A stretch of DNA of 64,000 nucleotides from a virus, in IMG/VR virus record IMGVR_UViG_3300047388_000107, positions 1-64,000 of that record. One strand, written 5' to 3'. The notes beneath the pieces are model-generated. The model was not told where the DNA came from, ran no database searches, and saw only the letters and a program-made list of their open reading frames with translations. Made by a program: the position numbers and the translations under genes. Positions 40,539-54,804 of this stretch are shown in pieces; position 1 is the stretch's first letter; each line of letters opens with the position of its first letter.

Positions 40539-40901
40539 ATGAGAATGGTTTGGACTAAGGAGATGGATATTGCATTGAAAGTTTTGATCGAAGAAGGAGT
40601 ATCCTACAAACAGATCGCAAAACAACTGAGTGCCGCATACGGTCTCGAGTTCACCAAGAATTCCTGTGTTGGAAGAGCCAACAGGCTGAGAAGGCCATCC
40701 CCACCACCGCCACAAAAAGTGACGATCTACGATCTGCGCGATGACCGCTGCAAATGGATATTGGGAGCTGTCAATGACAAGCCTCCGTATCTGTACTGCG
40801 GCAAACCCACCGGAGAACTTGGCATCTCATGGTGCCCGGTCCACGCCAGAAAAGTGTTCAACAAGACTAACGACATCGCCAAGATTTACCTCCGTGCGTG
40901 A
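40539..40901 (+). CDS. gcrA: GcrA cell-cycle regulator homologue
   Basis: WT......LK.L..EG.S..QIA..L....TKNS..G.A.RL and TI.DL....CKW..G......YCG........C..H. Confidence 0.88.
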   Translation: MRMVWTKEMDIALKVLIEEGVSYKQIAKQLSAAYGLEFTKNSCVGRANRLRRPSPPPPQKVTIYDLRDDRCKWILGAVNDKPPYLYCGKPTGELGISWCPVHARKVFNKTNDIAKIYLRA

Positions 40902-41415
40902 TCACTTTGTGCATGTCGTGCTGTTGACAGACATCTCTCACATCTAAACTAGCCAGCATCTGGCGCGTTGCACGAAACGTGCGGTTCATGAATTTTCGCC
41001 GGGCATCCCAGTTCGTATCTGCTGTTGCGTCTATAAAATTTTTCTCTTCTGGCGTAGCCACGGGGATGATGCGCTCAGTCTTGACCACTACTACCGGAGG
41101 GTTAAGACCAAAATTGAGAGAATGAGCTATCTCGGCTGGTGTTTGTTTTCCGTAAGCATCCCTGAGCGCCTTGGCTTTCTGTTCTTCAGTTGGAAACTTT
41201 GGTACTGTTGGGGCTCCAATCAGCATGGTGCCTGTTTTGTATGCGTCTTCTTTCTGCTTTTCAGGAGGCTGAATTTTAACGAGTTCTTCGTCGGTTACGA
41301 GCGGTCTTTGCAGCCCCAGCACCGTCATATTATCGGGCTTCATCCGCGTCCCCTCCAGTCTTTGTTGAGCCGATACAGCCGTTGTCATCAGCAGCAAAGC
41401 GACAAGTGTTTTCAT
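40867..41415 (-). CDS. Secreted hypothetical protein
   Basis: Signal peptide MKTLVALLLMTTAVSA; C-terminal DVC..H..HKV....SWRCR. Confidence 0.75.
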   Translation of the reverse strand: MKTLVALLLMTTAVSAQQRLEGTRMKPDNMTVLGLQRPLVTDEELVKIQPPEKQKEDAYKTGTMLIGAPTVPKFPTEEQKAKALRDAYGKQTPAEIAHSLNFGLNPPVVVVKTERIIPVATPEEKNFIDATADTNWDARRKFMNRTFRATRQMLASLDVRDVCQQHDMHKVITHGGKSWRCR

Positions 41416-43722
41416 CTAAGCCTCCCATGGCATCTTGAATGTGAATGGAGTGGATTGCATTGGCTGCCAAGTTTCACCCCAGTCACAGCCAATCAGCCAC
41501 GTCGTATCCGAATTGGTGACGACAAGACCGCGCAGCCTCAGACTGTTGAGGCAATCCTTGCCATCAACGAAGCCCGCTTCAATCTCCTTGATCGCTACTG
41601 GCGTCAGGATCATGTAGGTAACTTCCGGTGGTACGCCGTTCGGCGCATACTGCGCCTTGATCTCGTCGGTTGCTGGCGTCTTGGGACAGCGCTTCAACAG
41701 ATTAATCACGCCCGCAATGCGCTCCCGGTAAGGCAACCCGGTCGCCATGTAGAAACCACGCGATGGGCGGTTAACTTGATTGCTCTTCATCATTCGCATC
41801 AGGTAAGTCGCAACGTTCTTCTCGCTAATGCCGGTACGCACGGAGATGTCGCCTGCGGTCAGGCAGCATGCCGCAGTATGCAACGCCATTACCACTTCAC
41901 GGGTCTTGGTACCTTCGCCCGGCAGGAACAGTTCTGCCGCAGTCTGCGCCGGTTTCCACATTGGATTAGTGCCTTCCTTGATCATCTCGAAATCAAATTC
42001 CAGAATGTCGCGCATCCGGCTTTCGATCTTCACTACGTCGCCTTCCTTACCGATAATGATGGCGCCGTCCGCCGCGCCGCTGACGCCAAACGAGCCGTTG
42101 ATGCTGTCGATAGCGTCATCAACTTTACCTTTTTTAGTATGATGCACGACTAAGATCAAGACATTAAATTCCCATGCCAACCGCTGTACCGAAGCGACGA
42201 CTTTGTAATCCATCTGGTAGGCGTTGTCGGTCCGTTCTATCTTGCCACGAACCTGTTGCAGTACGTCGATCACCACCAGCCTGACACTGGGAAAGGTCTG
42301 TAAATTCGCCCTGATGTCATCCAGCAGCGTGCCGGTATCGTCGGCATTGACATAAAAAGGACCGTCCCTGCCATAACGCATCTTCATGTTTCTTCCTGCG
42401 CTGAAGCCTTTCGGCCGCAACAGCTTGATGCGTTCCTGAATGCGGCGCTCGCTGTCTTCCAGCATGTACATCAGCACTTCGCCATGCTGGCACTGTTCGC
42501 CCCAGAACAAGTTGCCTTCTGCGATGCTGAGTGCCAGTTCCAGAATGATCCAGCCTTTGCCGATTTTTGGCTTGCCTGCAAAAACGATGCAGCCAGCATC
42601 AGGAAGAAAGCGGTTCACCAGAAATTTCTGCGGCAGGAACGTCTTGTACATCAAGTCTTCAACGGTTCCGGCAGGATAACCCCGGCCGCTCGGCATCGGC
42701 AGCGGCTGCTTGGCCTTCAGCACCGCGACATTCTGGGCGAGCCCCATCGAGGCGCCGACACCACGGGCGAAGTCACGCTGGTCACCTTGACCCAGCGAAC
42801 CCGGCAGCATGCCGAAGGTTTCATCAGCCAGTTGGCCGATTTCAGCCAGTATCGGGTTGTCAATGCTCTCGTATTCTGTGATATTTTTGCAAACCTGATA
42901 CATGGCGTCGGTCAGCATCGGCGCAGTGCCGCTGGCTTTGATCAGCGCGCCATATTTCAGACCGAGACTGAACAGCTTGGTACCGCGTCCTGATCCTGCA
43001 GGCATGTTATCCACATAAAAAAGCATGCTTTTTATGTCGGCTTTGAACTCATTGAGGTTTTCCAGTGTCAGCATGGCGAGATCAGCTGCGCTCAAAGGTA
43101 CAGCTTCAATAAGCATGCTTTTCCGCAAGGCGAAACCAGCCGCAGTGACCGACGCTTCCAGTCCGGTTCGCAGTACATCAGCAAACACGAACGGCGGCAT
43201 CTGATCGAAGATGCTGGCGCCTTGATGCCAGTATTCCGTTGGATCATTCGGCAGCGGCGTTTTGTTGTGATAATTGCCCCACCAGACAACTTGCTTGCCT
43301 TCGCCCAGCAGCTGAACCGGACCGAATTTTTCCTGCTTGATGACGCCGGGCTGGGTGATGATGAGCGTGGCAGGACGGCGGCCCCAACGCCAATGGGTCG
43401 GATGAAAGAAAGTGTTGAGCGTGTTGGCAAAAGTCAGAGCTTTGGTGTTGTCGTCAATGTCGCAATCGACGCAGCGTACCTCGATAGGCCCCAACACCGG
43501 ATGGATGGTGAAACCAAGCTGGACCCCTACGCCGGTACATTCAGGCGCCAGAATATTGTTCAGCCGTATTTCAAGCGGAAATGTGTTCCATCCGGTGCCG
43601 CCCAGCGGTATCTTGCCGGTGACCGGGACCGGCAACAGTCCATGGATGGAATGCAGCTCGCGGGCTAATTTAACCAGCTCTTGCTTGTTCACGGCAACAC
43701 CCCACCACGGAGAGACGAACAC
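41416..43722 (-). CDS. Primase-helicase (Prim-Pol-like N-terminus + RepA/AAA_25 helicase + HTH)
   Basis: P..GK.P...W, VDCD, Q.V..G..H; GKPKIGKG Walker A, VVIDVL Walker B, VHHTKK, GS.G..GAAD; true start may be GTG 43692. Confidence 0.88.
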   Translation of the reverse strand: MFVSPWWGVAVNKQELVKLARELHSIHGLLPVPVTGKIPLGGTGWNTFPLEIRLNNILAPECTGVGVQLGFTIHPVLGPIEVRCVDCDIDDNTKALTFANTLNTFFHPTHWRWGRRPATLIITQPGVIKQEKFGPVQLLGEGKQVVWWGNYHNKTPLPNDPTEYWHQGASIFDQMPPFVFADVLRTGLEASVTAAGFALRKSMLIEAVPLSAADLAMLTLENLNEFKADIKSMLFYVDNMPAGSGRGTKLFSLGLKYGALIKASGTAPMLTDAMYQVCKNITEYESIDNPILAEIGQLADETFGMLPGSLGQGDQRDFARGVGASMGLAQNVAVLKAKQPLPMPSGRGYPAGTVEDLMYKTFLPQKFLVNRFLPDAGCIVFAGKPKIGKGWIILELALSIAEGNLFWGEQCQHGEVLMYMLEDSERRIQERIKLLRPKGFSAGRNMKMRYGRDGPFYVNADDTGTLLDDIRANLQTFPSVRLVVIDVLQQVRGKIERTDNAYQMDYKVVASVQRLAWEFNVLILVVHHTKKGKVDDAIDSINGSFGVSGAADGAIIIGKEGDVVKIESRMRDILEFDFEMIKEGTNPMWKPAQTAAELFLPGEGTKTREVVMALHTAACCLTAGDISVRTGISEKNVATYLMRMMKSNQVNRPSRGFYMATGLPYRERIAGVINLLKRCPKTPATDEIKAQYAPNGVPPEVTYMILTPVAIKEIEAGFVDGKDCLNSLRLRGLVVTNSDTTWLIGCDWGETWQPMQSTPFTFKMPWEA

Positions 43723-43723
43723 C

Positions 43724-43897
43724 CTACTCTTGTTCTATCGGTTCGTCACAGGCGTATCGCTCCATGATGTCGTGGCGAAACATCGCCATCTTGCGGGTGT
43801 GGCAGCGTGGGCATGTGTAGCACAGGAAGATGCCGTAGCCGTCAAACTGCGGCTCACGCTGTTCACCTGATCCGCATGGGCAGTATCTCAATTTCAT
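43724..43897 (-). CDS. Small Cys-rich protein
   Basis: GGAGG RBS; CPCGSG...DG.GIFL...C..C. Confidence 0.75.
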   Translation of the reverse strand: MKLRYCPCGSGEQREPQFDGYGIFLCYTCPRCHTRKMAMFRHDIMERYACDEPIEQE

Positions 43898-43907
43898 CCT
43901 GTCCTCC

Positions 43908-44010
43908 AATAAAAAGCATGCTTTTTTCGCGCCACCAATAAGCATGCTTTTTTCGATAGCGCAATCATAAAAGCATGCTTTTTTATCCACAGGAAAAAGC
44001 ATGCTTTTTT
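43908..44010. repeat. Four palindromic AAAAGCATGCTTTT-type units with a DnaA box (TTATCCACA 43983-43991)
   Basis: GCATGC cores at 43916, 43942, 43973, 43999 (spacing 26/31/26). Confidence 0.92.
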
Positions 44011-44094
44011 GTGTCCGGCCGGGCCGCCCCCGGCCGCGCGCCCGCTCGGTCCGCGCCGCGCGCCTGCCACAATTTCGCCGCATTCTAGCCACAA

Positions 44095-44122
44095 TTCTGG
44101 TATCTTGTATACTGTATACCAG
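44095..44122. repeat. Palindromic site CTGGTATCTTGTATAC-T-GTATACCAG, copy 1
   Basis: 27/28 match to reverse complement of 50015-50042. Confidence 0.88.
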
Positions 44123-44263
44123 CATACGCTGCGGCGCGGGAGGAATGCTGCGCCGCAGCGGGAACCGGCTGGCTAGCTCGTCTGGCTGGCTGGCTGTCAG
44201 GAGAACAGAAAATAAACCGTCAGCAGAGCAAACACAGCTGCCATGGTCAGTGCGTATTCCGCG

Positions 44264-44473
44264 TCATTCGTCATAGCCGTAGCCGCCCTCTGCCCGATCC
44301 GCGCAAGCGTCGCACTGGTAACCAAGCCGCTTGTCGGCTGGCGTGAGCCGGTTAGGTTGTCTGCAGGCAGGGCATGGCAGGTTACGGGGATTGCCGCGCC
44401 GTGCTGCCCGCAGCGCGCTGCGTCCACCGGGATCGGCAAAGTCCGGCCCATTATCGTCGTCATAGCGTCTCAT
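44264..44473 (-). CDS. Early hypothetical zinc-ribbon protein
   Basis: NPRNLPCP.C...NRLT..D...GYQCD.CAD. Confidence 0.75.
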   Translation of the reverse strand: MRRYDDDNGPDFADPGGRSALRAARRGNPRNLPCPACRQPNRLTPADKRLGYQCDACADRAEGGYGYDE

Positions 44474-44550
44474 TGTAAGCCTCGCTGGTTGGTTTGTTTT
44501 GGCTGCCCGTTATTGGGTAGCTCTCGAATGGATGGCCGCTCACTGACCTT

Positions 44551-44585
44551 CCTATTGCCTCAAGCCCGGACCGTCGAAAGACGGT
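44551..44585 (-). promoter_or_regulatory. Conserved intergenic hairpin element, copy A
   Basis: Minus strand ACCGTC-TTTC-GACGGT-CCGGGCTTGAGGCAATAGG. Confidence 0.7.
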
Positions 44586-44915
44586 TCAATCGTCGGCCGG
44601 TTCTTCCTCTTGGGGCCAGTCAAATGTTTCGGTCGCGTCGTTCCATTGCATCCCAACAGGGACTAGCCACAATGCGCCGTCTTGGTGCAAGTGATAGACT
44701 ACGCCGTCAATGTTCACGACCGCATTGTCGAGAACATATTGCCATTCGTCCCAATAGCATTCTTGATCGGGGCCGTTCTCCAGAACGGTCCAAACTTGCT
44801 CGCGAATGCCAATGACATGCGTGGCGCGGTCGGTCCAACAGTTGGCGAAGTCGCGCGGAATGTAGACGCCGCGATGATCATCAAGCCACAGCAGTACGTC
44901 AGGTTTGCCAGTCAT
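44586..44915 (-). CDS. Early hypothetical protein
   Basis: RGVYIP..FA, W..VLDNA, L.QDG.LW. Confidence 0.8.
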   Translation of the reverse strand: MTGKPDVLLWLDDHRGVYIPRDFANCWTDRATHVIGIREQVWTVLENGPDQECYWDEWQYVLDNAVVNIDGVVYHLHQDGALWLVPVGMQWNDATETFDWPQEEEPADD

Positions 44916-45199
44916 GAGTAGTAGCTCCCAATTTTGATCTGTTCACCATCCGGAGAAAGCCTGATCAGAACGCCAGAGAAATAGCTGTCGCTGGCATAGC
45001 CGTCCCAATTTTTCAGGTCGTCGCTATCGCAGGCCATGAACCCGTCCAGATGATACCAGTAACCGCGATAGCAAAAGAAACCATCCAGCACTTCTTCTGC
45101 GTTCTGGTAGCTGAATTGATCGGCTAGCACATCTGCCGGAACGTCGGAGCGGTAAACCAGATCACGCCACTTGTGATCGGTCCTGATGGTCAGGGTCAT
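44912..45199 (-). CDS. Early hypothetical protein
   Basis: FF.YRG..Y.L..F, WDG..SDS.FSG. Confidence 0.8.
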   Translation of the reverse strand: MTLTIRTDHKWRDLVYRSDVPADVLADQFSYQNAEEVLDGFFCYRGYWYHLDGFMACDSDDLKNWDGYASDSYFSGVLIRLSPDGEQIKIGSYYS

Positions 45200-45471
45200 G
45201 GCTGATGCTCCTTTTCCGCTTTCTCAATCGCGCTCTCGATCCATACGGCCAGATCAGACCGCGCGCGTTCGATATCTTTTTTGCCCTTGTACAAATGGCC
45301 CGTGTAATGGCTGGCTGCGCTTAGCGCGTGCGCCAAGCTTTTCCACGATCGGTGCGGCTTGATGCCTACGGCCATCAGCCTTAAGCCGCTCCGCAACGCG
45401 GCGGCTTGGAACGTGTGAACGTCCGAACCGATAAAGCTGACGGCGTTGCCGTTGTCGTCGTAGCCGATCAT
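45196..45471 (-). CDS. Early hypothetical protein
   Basis: AAGGA RBS, ATGA coupling. Confidence 0.7.
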   Translation of the reverse strand: MIGYDDNGNAVSFIGSDVHTFQAAALRSGLRLMAVGIKPHRSWKSLAHALSAASHYTGHLYKGKKDIERARSDLAVWIESAIEKAEKEHQP

Positions 45472-45680
45472 CGCTTGATTTCCTTCTGCGGTTTGAGAAT
45501 GTAGGCATGCTCCGCGATGTGCGGGTTGTTGTCGCGCAGGCCGCGCATGTAGCATTCGGCCAGTTCGCGCGTCGACGTGCGGTACAGCGACCGCATGTTG
45601 TGCGGCGGATCGATGACGACAGTCCATTGGGTTTCGTGAAACAGTCTGACCGGATGCCGGTCTTGGTGCCATGTGCTCAT
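45468..45680 (-). CDS. Early hypothetical protein
   Basis: GAGG RBS, coupled. Confidence 0.7.
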   Translation of the reverse strand: MSTWHQDRHPVRLFHETQWTVVIDPPHNMRSLYRTSTRELAECYMRGLRDNNPHIAEHAYILKPQKEIKR

Positions 45681-45871
45681 TGATATTTCCTCTCTCCGTG
45701 AAAAGCTTCACGGCATATCCGGTTAAATTGTCGCTCCGACATCGCGGCCAGTGCTTCGCTGTTGGGAAATTTGCCGATTGTGACAAAGCGCTGCATTCCA
45801 GAAGCTTTTTGCAGCACTGCGATTTGGTAACCGTACCAAACGACTTTCCATAGCTTGCTTTCGATATTCAT
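45677..45871 (-). CDS. Early hypothetical protein
   Basis: GGAGG RBS before MNIESK. Confidence 0.65.
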   Translation of the reverse strand: MNIESKLWKVVWYGYQIAVLQKASGMQRFVTIGKFPNSEALAAMSERQFNRICREAFHGERKYQ

Positions 45872-46134
45872 TGCCCGATCCTCCGATAGCGCCGAATGGA
45901 GCTGTTGCCCTCGCAATGCATGTTGGCGAGCTGCGGGTACTCGCCGCACTTGGCGCGGTAGGCTTCCATGAACTTCGCCATGTCGCAATCTTCTTCCAGA
46001 TAAAGCCAGTTGGCTTTCTGGTAACTGTATCTGGAGAAGTCAGCGACGCGCAATCCGACGTCGCCCGCGTCTTGATCCCGCACCGCTAACCATCCGTGAC
46101 TGCAATCGGTGTGATAGGTGAAACGTGTTCGCAT
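45868..46134 (-). CDS. Early hypothetical protein
   Basis: D..HGWL.V...S.YSY...YLEEDCD motif. Confidence 0.8.
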   Translation of the reverse strand: MRTRFTYHTDCSHGWLAVRDQDAGDVGLRVADFSRYSYQKANWLYLEEDCDMAKFMEAYRAKCGEYPQLANMHCEGNSSIRRYRRIGQ

Positions 46135-46176
46135 GTGATCTGCTCCTGTGAGAGGCCGTTCGTTCAGGGACCATTC

Positions 46177-46250
46177 CCTATTGGCTCAAGCCCGGTATGC
46201 GTCAGACCAGAATTTTAAAATTCTGTCGAAGCAGCCGGGCTTAAACCAAT
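46177..46250 (-). promoter_or_regulatory. Conserved intergenic long hairpin, copy B
   Basis: 16-bp outer stem with two G-U pairs on minus strand; inner CAGAATTTTAAAATTCTG palindrome. Confidence 0.75.
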
Positions 46251-46260
46251 GTTGGTTTGA

Positions 46261-46452
46261 TTACGTTACTCGGGTCTTTGCCGCTAACCGTTCAATGGCT
46301 TTGGCATCAACCGTCCACTCCTTTGCCAGATTGTTATCCTGCCAATTGGTCTGAACATGATCCGATTTTTCGTGACAAATCTCGGCAATGAAAAACAGCA
46401 CTTTGCTTAGTCCGAATTTGTCGATCATCATTTCCAGATCATCTTTGTTCAT
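46261..46452 (-). CDS. Early hypothetical protein
   Basis: LE.MID..GL..VL....EIC.EK..H...NWQD..LA..W. Confidence 0.75.
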   Translation of the reverse strand: MNKDDLEMMIDKFGLSKVLFFIAEICHEKSDHVQTNWQDNNLAKEWTVDAKAIERLAAKTRVT

Positions 46453-46465
46453 GTCCGTTGCTCCT

Positions 46466-46972
46466 TCAAAAAATCTTATCGATACATTCGGGACCAAAAC
46501 CTGAGGCGACCGATGACGGCACGGTCAGCTTGCGATTGCAGCGACCGCAACGGCCTTCATGCCAGATTTCCAGCTGATCCGGGATGGTGTCGCGGACAAT
46601 GGCTTTCCAAGCCCAAGCGAACGCGATTGCCGATGGCGCATCTGCGCCGATATCGCCAAGGCGAGGGTTCTTGCGGCCAAGCCAGAATACATCGCGAGAG
46701 ATACGGCCAAGATACTGGTAGTCTTGTTCGTTATTGGGACCGGACAATAGCGCCACGAAATGGCATTGGCCGTCCGGCGAGCTAGACACCCGATAGGTGA
46801 AACGAGCGCCGGTCTTTTTCGAGACCAGCGTCAAGGTTGACTTGCCAGCGAGCGCAAAGCGCTTAGCATCCAACGCGGTGACTAACCGGCCGGACATATC
46901 CGTGGTGTCCGCTGAAGATTTGATTTCGGCGCTATCCAGATCGTCATTCAAGGTGGCGAAAAAATCAGTCAT
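46466..46972 (-). CDS. DUF6011-like zinc-ribbon protein
   Basis: HEGRCGRC.RKLTVP.S...GFGPEC. Confidence 0.8.
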   Translation of the reverse strand: MTDFFATLNDDLDSAEIKSSADTTDMSGRLVTALDAKRFALAGKSTLTLVSKKTGARFTYRVSSSPDGQCHFVALLSGPNNEQDYQYLGRISRDVFWLGRKNPRLGDIGADAPSAIAFAWAWKAIVRDTIPDQLEIWHEGRCGRCNRKLTVPSSVASGFGPECIDKIF

Positions 46973-46985
46973 GACGGTTGTTCCT

Positions 46986-47165
46986 TTAGCTGGATTTAAC
47001 GAGGCGAAACTCGGCAACGACCCATTCGATGCCATCCGGCCGCATCACTTTGTAAAAAATTTCGCCGCTCGGTGTTTTGCCAAGTACGCAAATGACGTCC
47101 ATTTCAGTATCAACGGCGGGATAACCGCAAGCCCGCATCCAGTTGGCGCTAACCGTGACTTTCAT
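46986..47165 (-). CDS. Early hypothetical protein (59 aa, not in ORF track)
   Basis: GGAG RBS; MKVTVSANWMRACGYP... Confidence 0.6.
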   Translation of the reverse strand: MKVTVSANWMRACGYPAVDTEMDVICVLGKTPSGEIFYKVMRPDGIEWVVAEFRLVKSS

Positions 47166-47240
47166 CGTGGTATCTCCAGTGTGAGAGGAAAGAAAAAAAA
47201 CAGTCCGATAGCATTAGCGCTATCGGGACCGTGGATCAAG

Positions 47241-47339
47241 TCAGAAAATGATAATCATTGCGCCGTAATAGACCGTGGCTAAGAACAGGAATAGCACGGC
47301 GAACGCCAGCCAGTTGGCTACGGGATCATCGTTCCACAT
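47241..47339 (-). CDS. 32-aa single-TM peptide
   Basis: MWNDDPVANWLAFAVLFLFLATVYYGAMIIIF. Confidence 0.45.
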   Translation of the reverse strand: MWNDDPVANWLAFAVLFLFLATVYYGAMIIIF

Positions 47340-47586
47340 TGAATTTATCCAATAGCGAAGAATGATTGCACGCTTCGATAAACCGGTCAGCGTCAAAGCG
47401 ACCGTTCGAACGTTTACAGGCTGCTACGAAGCTATTGAGGACCGATTGCCATTGTGCGTGCTTGTTAGCGTCCCAATTCGCCATTGGCCTGCTTTCGGCC
47501 AGCACGGCGGCGATAAAGCAGAAATGACGATGTTGCAGTTCAGGGATTTTGTCCCTGTTGATGGTGGATCGGTCGCGTCCGTTCAT
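47326..47586 (-). CDS. Early hypothetical protein
   Basis: RHF.FIA..L ... N.RFD.DRF..AC. Confidence 0.8.
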   Translation of the reverse strand: MNGRDRSTINRDKIPELQHRHFCFIAAVLAESRPMANWDANKHAQWQSVLNSFVAACKRSNGRFDADRFIEACNHSSLLDKFNVER

Positions 47587-47631
47587 GATGTTTGCTCCGT
47601 GAGAGGATATCGGAGAGACCGGGATGGCCCT

Positions 47632-47678
47632 CCTACGGCCTCAAGCCCGGACCATCTTTCGATGGCCGGGCTATCGGC
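47632..47678 (-). promoter_or_regulatory. Conserved intergenic hairpin element, copy C
   Basis: Minus strand AGCCCGG-CCATC-GAAA-GATGG-T-CCGGGCTTGAGGCCGTAGG. Confidence 0.75.
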
Positions 47679-47692
47679 AGGTAAAGACTGGT

Positions 47693-47857
47693 TTATGGCA
47701 GTTGTCTTTCGGCCTGATAGAGCGCGAAGGCTAACAGCTTCTGGTCCGTGGTGGTCAGCATGCAAACGGCCATGGCATGCCTGCGGGCATAGGATCGCAG
47801 CTTGCGGGCATTGGTGAGGGTGGGAGCGAGCATCCATCGGTTGAGAAGTTTAAGCAT
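47693..47857 (-). CDS. Early hypothetical protein
   Basis: GGAG RBS before MLKLL. Confidence 0.6.
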   Translation of the reverse strand: MLKLLNRWMLAPTLTNARKLRSYARRHAMAVCMLTTTDQKLLAFALYQAERQLP

Positions 47858-48102
47858 GTGAGCGTCTCCATGGGTTGAAGCGTCATTGAAGCACAAACGA
47901 TAGCGTTACCGCTAATAAAAACACGTTTTCACGTCTTCACATTTGGTTACAGGCTGTAGGCTCTAGGATTGGATTAGAAGGCCATAGAGTGGGGTCTCCC
48001 CACAGAGCTACAGAGTGACCGGATTGGGAAAATAACGCATCAGTGACGTTTTCGTGTTTTGTTCTTGAGTGTATACGCTATGGAACTAGCGGGCAGGTTG
48101 TA

Positions 48103-48339
48103 TTACTTTTTTATCCGGATGAAATCATACCTGTGGCTATTGTTGATGCACCATCCGGTTCTTTTTTGTTTTTGAAAATTGACAATGATGTTGCCATATT
48201 CATTGGGCTGCCATTCGCAGTCGCGCTGTTTGGCGATTAGAGCGGCGAACTCATCATGGTTGTGTTTTTCGTATGGAACTAAGCGGCGCGAATACAGAAC
48301 AGTGCGGCCGGGTAGTCTTCTGACATAGACGTAAGTCAC
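48103..48339 (-). CDS. Hypothetical protein
   Basis: AGGAG RBS, GTG start. Confidence 0.5.
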   Translation of the reverse strand: MTYVYVRRLPGRTVLYSRRLVPYEKHNHDEFAALIAKQRDCEWQPNEYGNIIVNFQKQKRTGWCINNSHRYDFIRIKK

Positions 48340-48349
48340 GTGACGCTCC

Positions 48350-48841
48350 TATGGTTGTAGACGTTAGTAATGGGACCGGGTTTGAGGTTCACCCTACAAA
48401 GACAATTACTACAAGCGTCATCGCTATCGAGTTCCAAAATATGATTGTTTAATAATTTCAATGATTTAACTTGCCTACTGAAATTTTGTAGTTTTGGCCT
48501 GTTGGGATGTAGGTGTGTGGGAGGTTAAGTCATTGAAATCATTGTGTTATTTTTTATTTTTCTTACATTTGGGGGGGTCAAAACGCTTAAGAGGGGTAAA
48601 AAAGAATATTGAAAAAATGTTTGTTCCCGGTATGTCTAGGGACCGTTGAAATGATTATGTTATTTTGACCTACATGTGTTTGTTCTTGGTTTGTTCGTGT
48701 CTGTCACCTACAACCACGATCCGCCCACATGTAATAATACAAGCCAAAAATCAAGTTAAGTCCATGACCGGTCTACACTAATCGCTATAACCCTACCAAC
48801 CCCACAAAAATACATTAAAAGGGGGGTTTTGTTGTGGGGTG
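48350..48841. other. AT-rich non-coding control region
   Basis: No ORF >=60 aa; many CTACA/TGTAG pentamers; 18-bp inverted pair 48453-48470 / 48524-48541. Confidence 0.75.
48682..48696 (+). promoter_or_regulatory. Alphaproteobacterial LexA-box match GTTC-N7-GTTC
   Basis: GTTCTTGGTTTGTTC. Confidence 0.55.
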
Positions 48842-49303
48842 CTAAAAAGCGCTTAAAGTGGCTCTAGTCCGGTCCACTATTTTGAGTGTGGGGGAGGCTT
48901 CGGAAAGCGCAAAATAGGCAATTGGCGCTCTATCCATCGCGGTCGCAAATAGGAGGCGTGTGGGGCCGTAAAACAGGCTTTCGACTACGCCAAGTGCGCG
49001 ACCTGCTTCGATGCGGGCGGAAACTAGATCGATAGCGTCGGTCGCGGTTTCGATTGACCATTGCGCGCCCTCGTAGGCAAGGACGGCGGCGAACAAGAGG
49101 TTTAGCGCATCTAGGATCAAATCGGCTTGGATGTCGGATAAACCGAGCATTTCGCGCTTGATCGGCATCAAGGCGATACCGGCCGGTTTGAGGGCGCGAG
49201 CGCCCGCGTTAAGGATTTGTTCGAGTTCCGCGCGTGCTTCGTGAAAGACGATCTCAGAAAAACCGGTGAACAGAGCGGGAACGGTTTTATCGGTCATTTG
49301 CAT
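48842..49303 (-). CDS. Hypothetical protein
   Basis: ~153 aa, divergent from 49357. Confidence 0.6.
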   Translation of the reverse strand: MQMTDKTVPALFTGFSEIVFHEARAELEQILNAGARALKPAGIALMPIKREMLGLSDIQADLILDALNLLFAAVLAYEGAQWSIETATDAIDLVSARIEAGRALGVVESLFYGPTRLLFATAMDRAPIAYFALSEASPTLKIVDRTRATLSAF

Positions 49304-49356
49304 GGCCCTTTTACTAGTGTATACGTTAGCGTGTGGGATGATCCCACATAGGAGGA

Positions 49357-49656
49357 TTGAATATGAACATGCGAATTGAAACAATCGACTATGCCGTGAT
49401 GGTAGATGAACTGGCAGAACTCAAGGCGAGCATCGCGCCACTGCAAGAACGTGAAGCTACGTTGAAGGACCTGTTCAAAGAAGGCGGACGCGACCGCTAC
49501 GATGGAACCGGGCACACCGCTGTTGTCGTGCTGTCCGAGCGGGACAGTCTCGACACCAAGCGGCTGCGAGCGGACCTAGGCGAGGAACTGTACCTGTCCT
49601 ATTGTTCCAAGACGTCGGTCACGGCCGTTCGCCTGACCGCTCGTAAAACCCATTAG
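49357..49656 (+). CDS. Hypothetical coiled-coil protein
   Basis: AGGAGG RBS; VDELA.LKA.I..L...E..LK. Confidence 0.8.
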   Translation: MNMNMRIETIDYAVMVDELAELKASIAPLQEREATLKDLFKEGGRDRYDGTGHTAVVVLSERDSLDTKRLRADLGEELYLSYCSKTSVTAVRLTARKTH

Positions 49657-49667
49657 GACGGTCACTC

Positions 49668-49829
49668 ATGGGTCATGCAATGTTGTTCGCGGGGGTAATA
49701 GCCCTCGTCGCTCTCGCCTTTGGCAAGGACGCTGCGGTCATCCTAGCCCGTATCCTCGTGATCGGTATTCCCTTAGTGATCGCAGTCCTTCTGCTCTGCG
49801 CTAGCGCTGGCGTGTTCAAAGGTCTGTAA
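49668..49829 (+). CDS. 53-aa two-TM membrane protein (not in ORF track)
   Basis: MGHAMLFAGVIALVALAFGKDAAVILARILVIGIPLVIAVLLLCASAGVFKGL. Confidence 0.55.
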   Translation: MGHAMLFAGVIALVALAFGKDAAVILARILVIGIPLVIAVLLLCASAGVFKGL

Positions 49830-49954
49830 AGCTGACCTGACGTTTGTTGCGACGCGACGGCCCGGACGCAAGTTCGGGCCTATGCGCGTCTGCGCGCGGC
49901 TCACCCTCGAACCGTTGCCGCTCGAACCACTCGCTTTCCTTCCCGGTCTCCCTG

Positions 49955-50042
49955 CTGGTATGTGGGATGTGGCATAGCGTATACCAGTAACCACTGGTAT
50001 CTGGCATGTGGTATCTGGTATACAGTATACCAGATACCAGAA
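49955..50042. repeat. Heptamer STGGYAT array ending in a 31-bp palindrome (50009-50039), site copy 2
   Basis: TGGTATCTGGTATAC-A-GTATACCAGATACCA with perfect 15-bp arms. Confidence 0.92.
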
Positions 50043-50129
50043 GGTACCGAATGTGACAGAAAGGTGGTCGGATCGCTTTCGGGTACCGGTAACGGGCGAT
50101 GGCGGCGGCAGGCTGGCGCTAGATACCCC

Positions 50130-50283
50130 ACCCCCTAGGAATTTTTAGTATACAAGTTTACTGATAACAGTAACACGCCGTGTGATACCCTACCCCCTAG
50201 GAAATTTTAGTATACAAGTTTACGCCCGTAGGGTAAGTTTACAAATCCTCCACCCCCTAGGAAATTTTAGTATACAAGTTGAC
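50130..50283 (+). repeat. Three 32-bp direct repeats ACCCCCTAGGAAWTTTTAGTATACAAGTTKAC with 30- and 28-bp spacers
   Basis: Copies at 50130-50161, 50192-50223, 50252-50283. Confidence 0.93.
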
Positions 50284-50379
50284 AAATGCTTTAGCGGTGT
50301 TATGGAACTATGCTAAAGTCCGGTCCCTCTGGTGGAACAGAAGTAACAAACCGCCGCCAAGTGCGAGCTGGCAGGAAAG

Positions 50380-50640
50380 ATGGCAAAAATGGCAGACAAC
50401 CGGCTCGATCTCATTCGTTCCATCGTGCTGGCGGCCGATCAGGCCCGCGACAATCCCGATCTGGCGTGGCGGACCCTCAGCCAGATCAAGCGGTTGCTGG
50501 TCGAGCCTGACTTGAACCAGCGGCGTGTTAGGGCGCTGCAGTTCATCAAGGCACTCGCGGCCGATGATCTGGGCGATCCTCCGACGGTCCGATTGGCAGC
50601 AATCTGGCAAGCGGCGCATGACGCGCTGCGTGAGGTTTGA
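50380..50640 (+). CDS. Early hypothetical protein
   Basis: First ORF after repeats. Confidence 0.7.
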   Translation: MAKMADNRLDLIRSIVLAADQARDNPDLAWRTLSQIKRLLVEPDLNQRRVRALQFIKALAADDLGDPPTVRLAAIWQAAHDALREV

Positions 50641-50642
50641 AA

Positions 50643-50915
50643 ATGGCTAAACGCGAGCGCAAGCTGTCAGCCTCCACGGTGCGCGACATGGCCCGCAGGC
50701 GAGGACTGGCGATCCACAGGGCAGTAGCTGGCGGCTGGTACGTCGTGCTGATAGGCTACGTCTCCGGTCAGCCAGCCCCTACCCCGGTCCTCTATGCCAC
50801 CCACGACTGGAACAAGGCCAAGGCGTTCGTCAAAAAGCAGCCGACCATCATCAAGGTTCGGCCAGAATTTTCAAATTCTGTCGATAGGGAGAGTGACGAG
50901 GATGACAAGAGCTAA
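50643..50915 (+). CDS. Early hypothetical protein
   Basis: GAGG RBS. Confidence 0.7.
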   Translation: MAKRERKLSASTVRDMARRRGLAIHRAVAGGWYVVLIGYVSGQPAPTPVLYATHDWNKAKAFVKKQPTIIKVRPEFSNSVDRESDEDDKS

Positions 50916-51180
50916 CACCAGACCGTACAGCCAGCTGCACAACGACATGCTCAAGCATCTGACCATCCAGCTGCGCAAGGCCAACTACGACGTCGCGCAG
51001 ACTTGCGAGCTGGCCGACATCGCTCCGGAAATGATCACCCAGATCATCGTCTCGGCACTGCTGGCCGAAGCCATTCATGGCATGGCGGTCCTTGAGATGT
51101 CCGAAACCCAGTTTATCGCGCTGTGCCGCCGCGCCTACCGGCAGCTCTATCCGGAAATATCGCAAAGTATGGGCCGATGA
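50902..51180 (+). CDS. Small helical early protein, paralogue family member 2
   Basis: DVAQTC...LLAEA...MSETQF..LC..AY. Confidence 0.75.
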   Translation: MTRANTRPYSQLHNDMLKHLTIQLRKANYDVAQTCELADIAPEMITQIIVSALLAEAIHGMAVLEMSETQFIALCRRAYRQLYPEISQSMGR

Positions 51181-51217
51181 TTACGCTGCTGGCCATCACA
51201 ACTCACGAGGCCGTTCG

Positions 51218-51328
51218 ATGACGCTGACCCTGATAACCATCAGTGTACTGGTTGGGGCGGTCCTGCTGCTGCTGATCGAAGCCGCCATTCTTGCCTTGTT
51301 ATTCGCCAGCGAGTGGCGCGAAAGGTGA
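51218..51328 (+). CDS. 36-aa single-TM peptide
   Basis: GAGG RBS; MTLTLITISVLVGAVLLLLIEAAILALLF. Confidence 0.5.
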   Translation: MTLTLITISVLVGAVLLLLIEAAILALLFASEWRER

Positions 51329-51338
51329 GAGCAACAAC

Positions 51339-51485
51339 ATGAGCCGCAAAATGGTTCTGACGTTTGACGAGCACGATTATGACCAGCTGATCTTGCTGGC
51401 CAAATTGCACAAGTGCAGCGTTACCGAGCTGGTGCGCCGCATCGTCCGCGCCCATCTCGACAAGCGCGAGCTGGAGTTAAAATGA
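51339..51485 (+). CDS. CopG/RHH-like DNA-binding protein
   Basis: KMVLTFDE..Y..L..LA.....SV.ELVR..V. Confidence 0.7.
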   Translation: MSRKMVLTFDEHDYDQLILLAKLHKCSVTELVRRIVRAHLDKRELELK

Positions 51486-51769
51486 CCTATAAAGATAACG
51501 CTATTTTTAAAGATGTGGCGCAGCATTTTGCCGAACGCTTGCAGCAGCTGGTCAGAGATACCAGAGATACTTGCGCGCAGTCGAGATTGACACCGGACGA
51601 TTGCGTCATGCTGGTAACCATACATCTGTGGTACCAGCTGGCGCGCGCCGCTCACGCGGGCGAGATCAGCGAGGCCGATTTCGTCAAGGCGGCCTCCTTG
51701 GCTTATTGCGATATCAAGGGCTGGCTGGAGCAGCAGCTCAGCAAAAATTCTGGTCCTAAGAAAAATTAA
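51482..51769 (+). CDS. Small helical early protein, paralogue family member 3
   Basis: F.ERL..L..D..DTC...AH...SE..F.....AY. Confidence 0.75.
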   Translation: MTYKDNAIFKDVAQHFAERLQQLVRDTRDTCAQSRLTPDDCVMLVTIHLWYQLARAAHAGEISEADFVKAASLAYCDIKGWLEQQLSKNSGPKKN

Positions 51770-52021
51770 ATGAGTAACGACGCCAGTTTAATCGAACACC
51801 TGCGCTATCACGCCTCCGACCTTGGCGCGCATGCCGTGCCGTGCCGGGAAGCTGCCGATCAGATCGAGCGGCTTGAGGCGGCGCTGCAGTTCTATCGCGA
51901 TGGATGGATGTTCCAGACACACAAAAGTATGCCGGGACTATCATGGTCTCCAAAAGAAGAATTGCTTGATGATTGCGGCAACATCGCCCGCGCCGCACTG
52001 GGCAAGGATACAGGAAAATGA
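51770..52021 (+). CDS. Hypothetical protein
   Basis: EAADQIERLE.AL.FY...D.G.IARAAL phage pattern. Confidence 0.75.
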   Translation: MSNDASLIEHLRYHASDLGAHAVPCREAADQIERLEAALQFYRDGWMFQTHKSMPGLSWSPKEELLDDCGNIARAALGKDTGK

Positions 52022-52389
52022 AAAAGACGCTTCCTCAGCTGCTGGAAACAGCCCGCCTCCGCGCTGGCGCTTACGCCTCAAGGACCGGAGATCAGCATGG
52101 CGCGTTCAAGCTCATTGCGCCATCGCGGCGGCTGGCGGTGCTCTCCAGCGGCCCCAATGAGGGTTGGGAGCATGTCAGCGTTTCAGCCCATGACCGCACC
52201 CCGACGTGGAAGGAAATGTGCTGGATCAAGGATCTGTTCTGGGACGACGATGAAGTGGTGATGCAGTTGCATCCGGCCAAGCGGGATTACGTCAACCACC
52301 ATCCGTATTGCCTGCACCTCTGGCGGCCGCTCGAAGGCGTCATCCCGTTGCCGCCGTCGGAGTTTGTCGGGCCGAAGGAAACGGCATGA
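52018..52389 (+). CDS. Conserved phage hypothetical protein
   Basis: WEHVSVS...RTPTW.EM...KDLFW...E...Q.HP....YVN.HP.CLHLW. Confidence 0.85.
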   Translation: MKKTLPQLLETARLRAGAYASRTGDQHGAFKLIAPSRRLAVLSSGPNEGWEHVSVSAHDRTPTWKEMCWIKDLFWDDDEVVMQLHPAKRDYVNHHPYCLHLWRPLEGVIPLPPSEFVGPKETA

Positions 52390-52395
52390 GCCTGC
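52269..52395 (+). repeat. Exact 127-bp direct repeat, copy 2
   Basis: Identical to 1-127. Confidence 0.97.
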
Positions 52396-53129
52396 ATGCC
52401 GCTTGTTCGCCGTCGTCCGCCACGATGTGGTTAAATTGTGCGGCCAGCGTCACCAAAACCAAGGACATGGTTCGTCCGTCGTCAAAATATGCCCGTGAAG
52501 GCACCGCCGCGCACAAGGTGGCCGAGCTGACCCTGAAGGGGGATATCTTCCTGCCCGACAAGGTCACCGTCGAAGGCTACGAGTATATCGTTTCGCCCGG
52601 CATGTGCCGGGCCCTCAACTCATACATCACGCATATCGAAAGCCTTCGAGCCTTACCCGATGCCGTGGTGGTGCTTGAAAAACGCCTCGTCGTCCCGCAG
52701 ACCGGCGGCATGGTCTGGGGTACGCTGGACTGCGGCGTGCAGGCGACCGGCGAGTTACACGTCGTCGACCTGAAATTCGGCAAGTGGGGTGTTGTCGATC
52801 CCGATGCTCCGCAGCTCAAGCTCTACGCGCTGGCGCTGGCTGATCACGTCAAAGCGACGCGGCCAGATACTCGCGTCACGCTGACCATCTGCCAGCCGCG
52901 TGCCGGGGATACGGCGCTGCGCTCGCACGTTTCGACGCTGGGTGCGTTGAAGACGTGGCGGGCAACCTACGTCAGGCCCGCCATCCTGCGGATCAAGGCG
53001 GGTGACTTAACCGAGCACGCGGGCCCGCACTGCCGCTGGTGCGTGCGGCAAACCGAATGCAAAGCCTTTGCCCAAAAACATCAGGCGCGCGCCACGGACG
53101 TGTTCGACGATGCAGGACCGTTCGCATGA
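52386..53129 (+). CDS. DUF2800 / Cas4-like exonuclease (phage B)
   Basis: HA..SPSSA..W..C, EGTAAH, WGT.D, DLKFG, QL.LYA, HCRWC. Confidence 0.88.
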   Translation: MSLHAACSPSSATMWLNCAASVTKTKDMVRPSSKYAREGTAAHKVAELTLKGDIFLPDKVTVEGYEYIVSPGMCRALNSYITHIESLRALPDAVVVLEKRLVVPQTGGMVWGTLDCGVQATGELHVVDLKFGKWGVVDPDAPQLKLYALALADHVKATRPDTRVTLTICQPRAGDTALRSHVSTLGALKTWRATYVRPAILRIKAGDLTEHAGPHCRWCVRQTECKAFAQKHQARATDVFDDAGPFA

Positions 53130-53263
53130 AGCGCCGCAACCCGCCGAGCGACATCCCGCGGGCCCGGTCGCTGCTGATCAGGGGCATGGAGCTGAAAGAC
53201 TGGGATTACGTCTACGCGGCGCTGCTGCTGATGACCCGGGCAAAACGGCGGGTTAAACGTTAA
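53126..53263 (+). CDS. Small hypothetical protein
   Basis: ATGA coupling. Confidence 0.5.
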   Translation: MKRRNPPSDIPRARSLLIRGMELKDWDYVYAALLLMTRAKRRVKR

Positions 53264-53296
53264 CGAAAGCCGCGGTTGACAGGGCCGCGGCTTTCG
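53264..53296 (+). promoter_or_regulatory. 12-bp inverted repeat enclosing TTGACA upstream of SSB
   Basis: CGAAAGCCGCGG-TTGACAGGG-CCGCGGCTTTCG. Confidence 0.6.
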
Positions 53297-53351
53297 ACGG
53301 ACTATGTCCCTGTTACTTCGTGTCAACCCATCTCAACAGAAAGATCTCATC

Positions 53352-54435: not shown

Positions 54436-54436
54436 C

Positions 54437-54790: not shown

Positions 54791-54804
54791 GGCTCAAACC
54801 TTCC

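Follow-up and report, generated by a model that had tools for sequence, protein, structure and literature searches.

In phage lambda the operators OL and OR form two clusters of several dyad-symmetric sites for CI/Cro, about 2.4 kb apart. Satellite phage P4 carries ori and crr, both bound by the alpha primase-helicase, and phages T5 and SPO1 have long terminal repeats. Operators made of short repeated subsites are used by ribbon-helix-helix (RHH) proteins, as in the heptads of the omega repressor and the met-boxes of MetJ. The RHH antitoxin CcdA binds arrayed GTATAC palindromes in the ccd operator of the F plasmid, and more sites give a higher affinity (PMC5389731).

The locus described here belongs to an uncultured soil phage and lies in a window of 64,000 nucleotides (the 64-kb window), the whole stretch that was analysed, from contig IMGVR_UViG_3300047388_000107, where a 52,268-bp circular-mapping phage is fused to unrelated phage DNA. 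The host may be an alphaproteobacterium, as a GcrA homologue suggests. Two clusters of one palindrome, here called A and B, bracket a block of small early genes, and they look like arrays to which one regulatory protein binds, not like genome ends or sites of recombination.

Palindrome clusters around an early-gene block

From left to right the region contains the following features, with the strand in brackets where there is one.

41416–43890 (−), first outward operon left of cluster A, with a zinc-ribbon gene (43724–43890) and the gene of a 768-aa primase/helicase (41416–43722)
43910–44008, four AAAAAGCATGCTTTTT palindromes, with two more inside the primase-helicase gene (43017–43032 and 43107–43122)
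44098–44121, cluster A, one unit, TGGTATCTTGTATAC-T-GTATACCA, also written TGGTATC-TTGTATAC-T-GTATACCA, centre 44113
44128–44159 (−), GC-rich hairpin GCTGCGGCGC ... GCGCCGCAGC, separating cluster A from the last leftward early gene
44197–48339 (−), block of small leftward genes, conserved ones at 44586–44915, 45868–46134 and 47326–47586
48340–48840, AT-rich non-coding region, presumed early promoter region, with repeats at 48533/48646 and an inverted pair 48451–48475 / 48519–48543
48842–49303 (−), Pd, clade-specific 153-aa helical protein, divergent from Pe
49332–49348, 17-bp palindrome TGTGGGATGATCCCACA, separate from the units and located between Pd and Pe, a probable operator for another regulator
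49363–49829 (+), short operon of Pe (about 97 aa, widespread phage hypothetical) and a 53-aa membrane protein, ending before cluster B
49859–49880 (+), GC-rich hairpin GGCCCGGAC-GCAA-GTTCGGGCC, 3' of the small membrane-protein gene and before cluster B
49955–50042, cluster B, a degenerate unit (49955–49993) and a perfect unit (50009–50039)
50043–50096, conserved spacer module, GGTACCG - 13 nt - GGTGGT - about 12 nt - GGGTACCGGTAAC
50122–50283 (+), three repeats of about 60 bp ending CCCCTAGGAAATTTTAGTATACAAGTTTAC, with 40-nt copies at 50122, 50184 and 50244, presumed to be the promoter element P_R for the operon that runs rightward with genes from 50380

The perfect unit of cluster B is a 15+1+15 palindrome, TGGTATCTGGTATAC-A-GTATACCAGATACCA, centred on 50024, and a repeat search pairs 44095–44122 with 50015–50042 over 28 nt with 96% complementarity, which confirms the palindrome and the 27/28 partner described in an earlier note on this DNA. 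GTATAC-N-GTATAC occurs in the 64-kb window only at 44107 and 50018, and with at most one mismatch allowed the count is two, against a shuffle mean of 0.02, with two or more matches in 0 of 100 shuffles. The unit consensus is TGGyATcTGGTATAC-W-GTATACCAgATrCCA, 31 bp long with GYAT every 7 bp; the GYAT/TGGYAT words of cluster B show a 7-bp period, and the unit-to-unit spacings of 24/25, 31/32, 38 and 45 bp are steps of 7. When 20 units were symmetrised to 40 half-sites and conservation was counted at positions outside the selection, T-8 was kept in 38/40, G-7 in 34/40, G-14 in 30/40 and G-13 in 29/40, the centre was unconstrained (19 A, 19 T, 1 C, 1 G), and outside ±16 the positions were near-random with at most 0.2 bit each. 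Three or more TGG[TC]AT hexamers within 40 bp are found only at the palindrome clusters in all five sequences examined.

Three complete relatives (G001, G002 and G003), with a primase identity of 65–67%, have the palindrome confined to two clusters with 4.5–6.5 kb between them and 1–5 units per cluster, namely 5+3, 3+3 and 1+1 units in the syntenic cluster A and in cluster B respectively. Relative G006 has cluster B and no cluster A, indicating that the pairing is not obligatory. The pairing is thus present in three of four related genomes, and both clusters also occur together on one more metagenome contig, so that the conservation proposed as a check in the earlier note was found. Unit number differs from 1 to 5 among relatives and also among strains, one strain variant having lost 46 bp (49978→50025) and with them one unit of cluster B. 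A metagenome scan for the word gave 46 loci, 21 of them from this clade and each in one of the two known contexts; 15 adjoin Pd/Pe, 8 adjoin the AAGCATGCTT array and the primase, and 2 span both.

All ORFs between the two sites are at most 196 aa, with DUF6011 as the sole Pfam match, and GC drops to 0.435 at 48–49 kb, in agreement with the earlier description of small genes and an AT-rich region. Gene order in the leftward block varies among relatives and the strand is constant. The presumed early promoter region has one sigma-70-like match (48533–48560); a sigma-70 scan of 43500–50700 gave 6 matches against a shuffle mean of 5.7, which is no excess. The AF2 model of Pd (pLDDT 89.8) is entirely helical and matched no PDB fold with E ≤ 0.001 (best E 0.6), and Pd, encoded beside cluster B, is by this model a helical bundle without a DNA-binding fold match. 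The TGTGGGATGATCCCACA palindrome occurs once each at the syntenic position in G000, G001, G002, G003 and G006.

The hairpin at 44128–44159, which has no U run, is likely the end of the leftward early transcripts. G001 has a hairpin of other sequence at the equivalent place, and the hairpins before cluster B in G001, G002 and G003 keep their position with a different sequence. Each cluster is found behind the hairpin closing the inner operon and before the outward operon, a position that fits protein-binding-site arrays. A different repeat array lies outside each site, as previously reported. To the left, the AAAAAGCATGCTTTTT palindromes are candidate replication-origin iterons, and G001, G002, G003 and G006 also have this word both within the primase gene and upstream of it. 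To the right, both GGTACC words of the spacer module, 39–40 bp apart, were found in 15 of the 19 cluster-B sequences examined, and two strain variants have 2 copies of the P_R repeat. The next GTATAC (the TTTTAGTATAC element) follows 116–132 bp beyond the centre of the last unit in 16 of the 17 cluster-B sequences that extend far enough (L202 and L207 end before it), and L214 has none.

Possible roles of the arrays

Both sites may well be operator arrays of one phage-coded regulator that is predicted to bind them and to gate or insulate the early block. The 31-bp dyad-symmetric site would then consist of four GYAT-containing subsites, 7 bp apart, and the arrays would be read by one sequence-specific, probably oligomerising phage-coded DNA-binding protein. 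They would face the replication genes at the left edge of the early block and the P_R-driven genes at the right edge, behind the inner-operon hairpins and before the outward operons, so that a bound protein would gate or insulate transcription leaving the block both ways and thereby act as a temporal switch. The protein might also bridge both arrays to form a loop of about 6 kb, and the earlier idea of possible paired looping sites fits the operator arrays.

It is unlikely that the arrays are replication elements, that is, a split origin like ori/crr of P4, bound by the primase-helicase or another initiator alongside the AAGCATGCTT palindromes. Cluster A is about 200 bp from the primase-helicase operon, the AT-rich palindrome array beside it runs into the primase gene in every relative, the N-terminal ~350 and C-terminal ~230 residues of the 768-aa helicase show no family match, and same-word clusters 4.5–6.5 kb apart resemble the P4 layout. 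However, G006 retains the AAGCATGCTT array and the primase without cluster A, cluster B sits within a conserved promoter-like module, and the AAGCATGCTT palindromes are the better origin candidate.

The earlier note proposed that the sites may border a long terminal repeat, as known from T5 and SPO1, or a first-transferred segment, and suggested a search for doubled coverage over 44.1–50.0 kb. On this reading the borders, about 6 kb apart, would be recognised by the terminase. The small early-type genes inside the block, the repeat arrays immediately outside both sites and a circular assembly compatible with a collapsed terminal repeat agree with this, and identity of the terminase to any named phage does not exceed 30%, which leaves the packaging type unreadable from it. 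Depth was taken from runs X2, X3 and X4, with contigs breaking near the block edges, as contig word-depth per bin, which is not copy number; it was 7.8–8.9 inside and 4.8–8.7 outside the block in X2, 11.6–15.3 and 10.5–14.2 in X3, and 11.3–11.7 (one bin 2.05) and 6.2–10.1 in X4, with inside/outside ratios typically of about 0.9–1.4 and not 2. Because of these ratios and the absence of cluster A from G006 the terminal repeat is disfavoured, and an array of 1–5 units is unlike a fixed cleavage signal; genome ends are therefore quite improbable here.

A very doubtful role is that of stacked host-RNA-polymerase promoters or polymerase sinks, with an extended -10-like TGGTATACT on the strand with the T centre that matches the extended -10 consensus TGnTATAAT in 8/9 positions. 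Lone GTATAC words, mostly AGTGTATAC, share their intergenic positions across all four complete genomes, in many cases where the flanking genes diverge. TTGAC-N17-GTATAC precedes the start codon of the helicase by 7 nt in G000, G001 and G002, and in cluster A of G001 the T is on the primase-facing strand in 5/5 units. Across the genomes and metagenome loci examined, however, the centre base is not consistently oriented with respect to the outward operons and may be G or C, and neither the outer TGGYAT words nor the perfect dyad has a promoter role.

RNA hairpins that terminate the early transcripts or mark their ends for RNase III-type processing are highly unlikely. The units form long perfect stems, and shuffled sequences fold less well than these regions (z −4.1 at cluster A, where 44085–44170 gives −38.5 kcal/mol, and −2.8 and −4.3 at cluster B), but the stem is invariant without covariation although the relatives' primase is only 65–67% identical, no U run follows the units, other GC-rich hairpins already separate the genes from the arrays, and Rfam gave no match with E ≤ 0.1. 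By sequence comparison, the unit is conserved in sequence rather than in structure.

That the sites form a crossover pair by which the early block is inverted or excised can practically be dismissed despite the 27/28 inverted match 5.9 kb apart and a zinc-ribbon gene that adjoins cluster A on its inner side in the window and cluster B on its outer side in G001, because no recombinase was recognised among the ORFs scanned (84 against PHROGs; 36 and 42 against Pfam), as in the earlier note, and the joints listed in four runs include none linking 44.1 to 50.0 kb and no strand switch there; the orientation of the block relative to the primase is also the same in G000, G001, G002, G003, G006 and L226. 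What stands of the view of paired special sites is the pairing itself, which is real and conserved, while the terminal-repeat and recombination readings are without support.

Candidate binding proteins

Two small genes encode candidate binders.

31514–31720 (−), RHH-1, 68-aa ribbon-helix-helix-like protein
32468–32695 (−), RHH-2, 75-aa protein, RHH-like pattern by eye only

The sites, their places and conservation and the modelled RHH-like dimer are observed here; we infer that a protein binds the arrays and acts by repression or activation, most likely the clade-conserved small RHH-like protein RHH-1 as the candidate, alternatively RHH-2; the binder could also be a host protein. Homologues of RHH-1 (n = 22) show 72–97% identity and have lengths of 37–119 aa, and JGI annotates two of them, one as 'CopG/Arc/MetJ family transcriptional regulator' and one as 'predicted DNA-binding protein'. 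In the presumptive ribbon T11 and R17 do not vary, and N9 and S15 are kept in 90% or more. The homodimer model scores 0.66 (best control 0.00); of the proteins solved as one-chain pairs 20 of 30 reach this mark, and of those solved as single chains 1 of 23. At least 96% of the contacts recur between runs, the partner pLDDT is at least 78, and the modelled contacts 15-15, 14-16, 13-17 and 12-18 correspond to an antiparallel N-terminal ribbon. This pass, with its textbook fold, may reflect likeness to solved RHH dimers. Searches of Pfam, NCBIfam and PDB sequences gave no support for RHH-1, and its monomer model (pLDDT 71) matched no RHH structure with Foldseek or VIA-align (best Z 4.4). The gene is 12 kb from cluster A, and its link to the arrays therefore rests on a lone GTATAC (31756–31761), 36 bp from the RHH-1 start, and on analogy. 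RHH-2 is 72–81% identical in G001–G003 and has no match in Pfam, PDB sequences or NCBIfam.

Comparison with known systems

Like T5 and SPO1, the phage has a small early-gene block set off by repeat-rich borders, but the contig word-depth, which gives no copy number, is not doubled and the borders are not always paired. With ori/crr of P4 it shares one binding word in two clusters a few kb apart, one of them near a primase-helicase gene; in contrast to P4 the origin-like position is occupied by another palindrome (AAGCATGCTT), cluster A is dispensable in one relative, and the helicase is of DnaB/RecA type.

The layout may also be compared with OL/OR of lambda, where there are likewise two multi-site dyad clusters kilobases apart, here presumably for one protein, that bracket a regulatory/early segment with outward operons on both sides and possible long-range bridging. 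Unlike in lambda, the phage ORFs scanned include no recognisable CI-like repressor, integrase or other lysogeny gene, the spacing is 4.5–6.5 kb instead of about 2.4 kb, subsites within the unit are phased by 7 bp, the sites are 120–220 bp before the next operon and not demonstrably over its -35/-10, and one relative has a single cluster.

The RHH operators of ccd, omega and MetJ differ in that the phage arrays are split between two distant loci, with binding here predicted; no sequence homology to CcdA or omega was found, and no toxin partner is present. The phage hexamer GTATAC is identical to that of the ccd operator (PMC5389731). The GYAT/GTATAC subsites at a sub-turn distance of 7 bp, in converging arrays of variable length, resemble RHH operators, and the phage encodes a conserved small protein modelled as an RHH-like dimer.

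The phage genome and its assembly

The record is a single contig of 79,810 bp, in which bases 1–127 are repeated exactly at 52269–52395. In the probable source run, X1, a contig with a depth of 25.5 spans 41000–52019 and from 52442 on the depth is 8.7, and in two other runs contigs pass from 52395 into window position 128, which closes the circle. By the 127-bp repeat, the depth step and the closing contigs the phage is a circular-mapping unit of 52,268 bp, and the contig consists of two entities joined via the common 127-mer, namely this phage and a different phage-like sequence. The second piece (52396–64000, and on to 79810 of the contig) has a GC content of 0.62–0.70, higher than that of the phage; it carries its own exonuclease and tail-fibre genes and shows DNA matches of 74–78% to 12476–13181 and 21668–22291. 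In runs X1 and X3, contigs of low depth link 43359 to 51635 across 9 other letters; neither position is at the palindromes, and a related phage or a short repeat may be the source of this joint.

Recognized products of the 52,268-bp unit are a family-A DNA polymerase, a Gp2.5-like ssDNA-binding protein, an exonuclease, a helicase and a 768-aa DnaB-type primase/helicase, together with terminase, capsid protein, endolysin, tail fibres and a GcrA homologue. Among the ORFs compared (84 with PHROGs; 36 + 42 with Pfam) there was no recognizable integrase, recombinase, repressor or RNA polymerase; the earlier note likewise recognized no recombinase gene. Identity to the nearest named phages is 30% at most for DNA polymerase and terminase, and the best terminase match, at 30.4%, is too distant for the packaging mode to be inferred. 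A megablast search of 43500–51000 against named phages gave no match, and Rfam (E ≤ 0.1) and tRNA scans returned nothing. The homologue of GcrA, a sigma-70 cofactor, lies at 40539–40901, is kept in all relatives and hints at a host among the alphaproteobacteria. Two HNH / endonuclease VII-type genes, one at 26735–27397 beside the capsid gene and one at 31069–31614 beside the gene of the small protein RHH-1, are found in none of the complete related genomes G001–G003, the former having a weak partial match in the related fragment G006; both may be mobile homing-endonuclease insertions.

Two palindrome clusters and the block between them

The right-hand site, 50009–50039, is the perfect palindrome TGGTATCTGGTATAC-A-GTATACCAGATACCA, and the left-hand site, 44098–44121, reads TGGTATCTTGTATAC-T-GTATACCA. 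The two pair over 28 nt with 96% complementarity, and their core, GTATAC-N-GTATAC, occurs 2 times in the 64-kb window compared to a shuffle mean of 0.02, a count of 2 being reached in 0 of 100 shuffles, so that the two-site palindrome described in the earlier note is real. A degenerate second unit at 49955–49993 lies alongside the right-hand site. The different repeat array that had been noted outside each site is also present, as AAAAAGCATGCTTTTT palindromes at 43910–44008 and as three 40-nt copies at 50122–50283. The palindrome units at the left border, on the primase side, are here called cluster A and those at the right border cluster B, and the early genes between them the block, with the following layout.

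From 43890, leftward: replication operon
Right of the replication operon: AAGCATGCTT array, then a GC-rich spacer, then cluster A
44128–44159: GC-rich hairpin, right of cluster A
44197–48339, leftward: small early genes
48340–48840: AT-rich gap
48842–49303, leftward: Pd (153 aa)
49332–49348: 17-bp palindrome TGTGGGATGATCCCACA, between the divergent Pd and Pe
49363–49829, rightward: Pe (about 97 aa) and a 53-aa membrane protein
49859–49880: hairpin, ahead of cluster B
Right of cluster B: conserved module GGTACC...GGTGGT...GGTACC
50122–50283: three promoter-like repeats ending TTTTAGTATACAAGTTTAC, 40-nt copies, right of the GGTACC module
From 50380, rightward: genes right of the promoter-like repeats

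Within the block the gene order varies among relatives and the strand is constant for all conserved genes. A repeat of 19–32 nt, CCTAyyGCCTCAAGCCCGG, is present three times between the small leftward genes (44544–44575, 46177–46195 and 47625–47656) and may be a module-boundary element. The TGTGGGATGATCCCACA palindrome has a single copy per genome, at the syntenic place in five relatives, and probably serves a second regulator as operator. The 69-aa zinc-ribbon gene at 44264–44473 is located just inside cluster A in the window and directed toward it; its G001 counterpart (30194–30391, 66% identity) comes first beyond cluster B and is directed away from that cluster, and G002 and G003 have no such gene. 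The rightward operon encodes three paralogous helical proteins of about 80–130 aa (50794–51180, 51413–51769 and 348–593), with homologues of 26–36% identity in every relative.

An alignment of 20 units on their centre, with both strands counted, gave the consensus TGGyATcTGGTATAC-W-GTATACCAgATrCCA for the 31-bp unit. Judged outside the twelve core positions, which served for selection, the half-sites are conserved at T-8 (38/40), G-7 (34/40), G-14 (30/40) and G-13 (29/40), the centre is free (19 A, 19 T, 1 C and 1 G on both strands), and the flanks beyond ±16 are near-random with at most 0.2 bit per position. It follows from the consensus that each half carries GYAT/TGGYAT subsites at 7-bp intervals, which run toward the centre from both sides in direct and inverted order. 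The spacings from unit to unit, 24/25, 31/32, 38 and 45 bp, likewise increase in steps of 7. Strain variants differ by whole units, as in a 46-bp skip from 49978 to 50025, and have 2 promoter-like repeats instead of 3.

Conservation of the clusters in related phages

A scan of viral contigs with the core word gave three contigs of about 50–52 kb with two clusters each, G001, G002 and G003, and two fragments; the primase of the relatives is 64–67% identical to that of the window. The core is restricted to two clusters per genome, with 5+3 units in G001, 3+3 in G002 and 1+1 in G003 at distances of 6.0, 6.5 and 4.5 kb respectively, and TGG[TC]AT hexamers do not cluster outside them. One cluster always adjoins the AAGCATGCTT array and the primase and the other Pd/Pe in these three genomes. 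The 40-kb fragment G006 has cluster B with 2 units, and no unit anywhere between its AAGCATGCTT array and the block, where cluster A would be. A metagenome scan with a longer word than the core gave 46 loci. Clade proteins accompany 21 of them, 15 in cluster-B and 8 in cluster-A context with two spanning both, namely L226 (4.8 kb apart) and L221, which is the G003 contig; the remaining 25 are single matches without clade proteins. Site conservation in relatives had been set beforehand as a test, and the two clusters do recur in G001, G002, G003 and the metagenome locus L226, G006 having cluster B alone. The unit word can thus serve as a metagenome marker for the clade (21 of 46 matches).

The stem sequence does not vary between genomes with primases of only about 65% identity, whereas the loop base and the flanks drift; this pattern indicates a sequence-specific recognition of the dyad and not a purely structural RNA or DNA hairpin. 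In four genomes the inner genes and cluster B are separated by GC-rich hairpins that differ in sequence and share their position, and the window and G001 also have one ahead of cluster A. On the 3' side of cluster B two GGTACC words are 39–40 bp apart in 15 of 19 sequences, and of the 17 sequences that reach far enough, 16 have a TTTTAGTATAC element 116–132 bp beyond the last unit. By the hairpins and this fixed downstream geometry each array, left and right of the block alike, would lie in control DNA, with the end of an inner operon behind it and an outward operon ahead. The arrays are intergenic; a sigma-70 scan of 43500–50700 gives no more hits than shuffles do.

Lone GTATAC words, mostly AGTGTATAC, occur in the window at 7561, 7606, 25682, 31756, 40059, 48071 and 49319, and in all four complete genomes they are at syntenic intergenic positions, often between divergent genes. 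A leaderless transcript is suggested at 40059, where the word belongs to a TTGAC-N17-GTATAC that lies 7 nt ahead of the helicase start codon.

Possible readers and roles of the arrays

Repeated dyad-symmetric sites with a fixed sequence and a free centre and flanks, as found here, are what characterizes regulator operator arrays. On the best-supported reading the two are a pair of operator-type arrays through which one regulator would gate or insulate the early block, perhaps by bridging them, and we hold the chances for and against this to be equal.

Among the small ORFs that all three complete relatives share, two have a ribbon-helix-helix (RHH) pattern.

31514–31720: RHH-1, 68 aa, 76–84% identical in the three complete relatives
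32468–32695: RHH-2, 75 aa, 72–81% identical in the three complete relatives

RHH-1 has homologues (n = 22) of 72–97% identity, two of which are named by JGI as a 'CopG/Arc/MetJ family transcriptional regulator' and a 'predicted DNA-binding protein', and its start lies 36 bp from the lone GTATAC at 31756. The homodimer model scored 0.66, a mark reached by 20 of 30 proteins solved as one-chain pairs and by 1 of 23 solved as single chains, with the best control at 0.00, at least 96% of contacts agreeing between runs and a partner pLDDT of at least 78; the score may reflect a likeness to solved RHH dimers. The modelled contacts 15-15, 14-16, 13-17 and 12-18 are those of an antiparallel N-terminal ribbon, of which residues T11 and R17 are invariant. 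RHH-1 had no match in Pfam, NCBIfam or PDB-sequence searches, and its monomer model matched no RHH structure (Foldseek best E 5.8; VIA-align wide best Z 4.4, to long-helix chains), a null result that is no evidence on the fold. For the RHH antitoxin CcdA, binding with avidity to GTATAC palindromes in arrays has been reported (PMC5389731). By analogy RHH-1, or RHH-2, is a candidate binder of the arrays; we infer the link of RHH-1 to them from the lone GTATAC words and the CcdA precedent, the searches with its sequence and monomer model having been null. A non-exhaustive literature search on GTATAC palindromes as phage operators gave, among the papers listed, nothing on this clade and only the CcdA paper as relevant.

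Three other products were considered as binders and set aside. Pd, the product of a clade-specific gene adjoining cluster B, is modelled as a confident helical bundle (pLDDT 89.8) with no PDB match at E ≤ 0.001 and no match to a DNA-binding fold; the ESM Atlas gave no usable match for it, and for Pe only unnamed viral clusters. The RHH-like ORF at 51339–51485 is absent from all relatives and is therefore an unlikely reader of a conserved site, and the zinc-ribbon ORF at 44264–44473 is present only in the window's phage and in G001.

The units might instead be bound by a host factor. In species-representative genomes the word is scattered singly, with at least 120 stretches of TGGTATACNGTATACCA; among 80 of these loci examined, 6 have two units, 1 has an outer heptad, and none matched the clade by tblastx at 1e-6.

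A split origin of the P4 ori/crr type is also possible, with which the layout is similar and the neighbouring AT-rich palindromes, extending into the primase gene, would agree. The AAGCATGCTT palindromes are however the better origin candidate. The 16-bp perfect palindrome AAAAAGCATGCTTTTT has 4 copies at 43910–44008 upstream of the primase-helicase operon and two further copies inside the primase-helicase gene (43017–43032 and 43107–43122), the word is placed likewise in G001, G002, G003 and G006, and the set is a candidate for replication-origin iterons. A DnaA-box-like word, TTATCCACA, abuts two AAGCATGCTT copies in the window and is not found in the G006 piece. In P4 both clusters are needed and are bound by the initiator helicase-primase, whereas G006 has cluster B alone; cluster A is thus dispensable there, which argues against an obligatory pair of this type.

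The arrays could also be read as promoter stacks, given the likeness of TGGTATACT to an extended -10; the centre base, however, is not consistently oriented and is sometimes G or C.

The earlier note had proposed the block as a long terminal repeat of the T5 or SPO1 type, or the sites as a pair for recombination, and neither is borne out. A terminal repeat should have both borders in relatives, but G006 lacks the cluster A border; the depth inside versus outside the block in runs X2, X3 and X4, whose contigs break near the block edges, has typical bin ratios of about 0.9–1.4, which is weak evidence against such a repeat because contig word-depth gives no copy number. For an inversion or excision module the paired sites themselves would speak, but the ORF comparisons with PHROGs and Pfam gave no recombinase gene, no joint between the sites is among those listed for four runs, and the block has the same orientation in six genomes or contigs; rare events could escape, as contigs drop rare variants. 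Hairpin promoters for a virion RNA polymerase have no support, the 1703-aa protein (989–6100) matching no PHROG (E ≤ 0.1) and no PDB sequence (E ≤ 1), with a sub-threshold tail lysozyme as its only Pfam match.

For phages dependent on the host polymerase, detailed knowledge of temporal control comes from only a few models. The clade studied here, of uncultured soil phages, is itself uncharacterized, and its control architecture is readable from sequence although its DNA polymerase and terminase have at most 30% identity to any named phage: one strongly conserved 31-bp site in arrays of variable length borders the block on both sides, adjoined by a probable origin at one border and at the other by an elaborate promoter module. 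Going beyond operator arrays as such, an RHH protein could bridge the two heptad-phased arrays, 4.5–6.5 kb apart, as a lytic-timing loop in a virulent-looking phage without lysogeny genes, which we consider improbable. The small protein would coat both arrays and bridge them, closing the whole early-gene block into a loop or nucleating silencing across it, and this one architectural event would switch the early programme off and the replication and rightward operons on. If the arrays were bridged, long-range operator looping would extend to lytic timing.

The site architecture resembles known kinds of operators. With the RHH heptad operators of the omega, CcdA and MetJ type the units share short subsites at a fixed sub-turn spacing, in direct and inverted order. 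The paired arrays may work like the paired operator clusters OL and OR of lambda, but a lysogeny module as in lambda, with a CI-type repressor and integrase, is absent from the same 84 and 36 + 42 ORFs, and the arrays are therefore not a lambdoid immunity region; a long-range loop would here serve lytic timing, whereas in lambda the OL-OR loop serves immunity.
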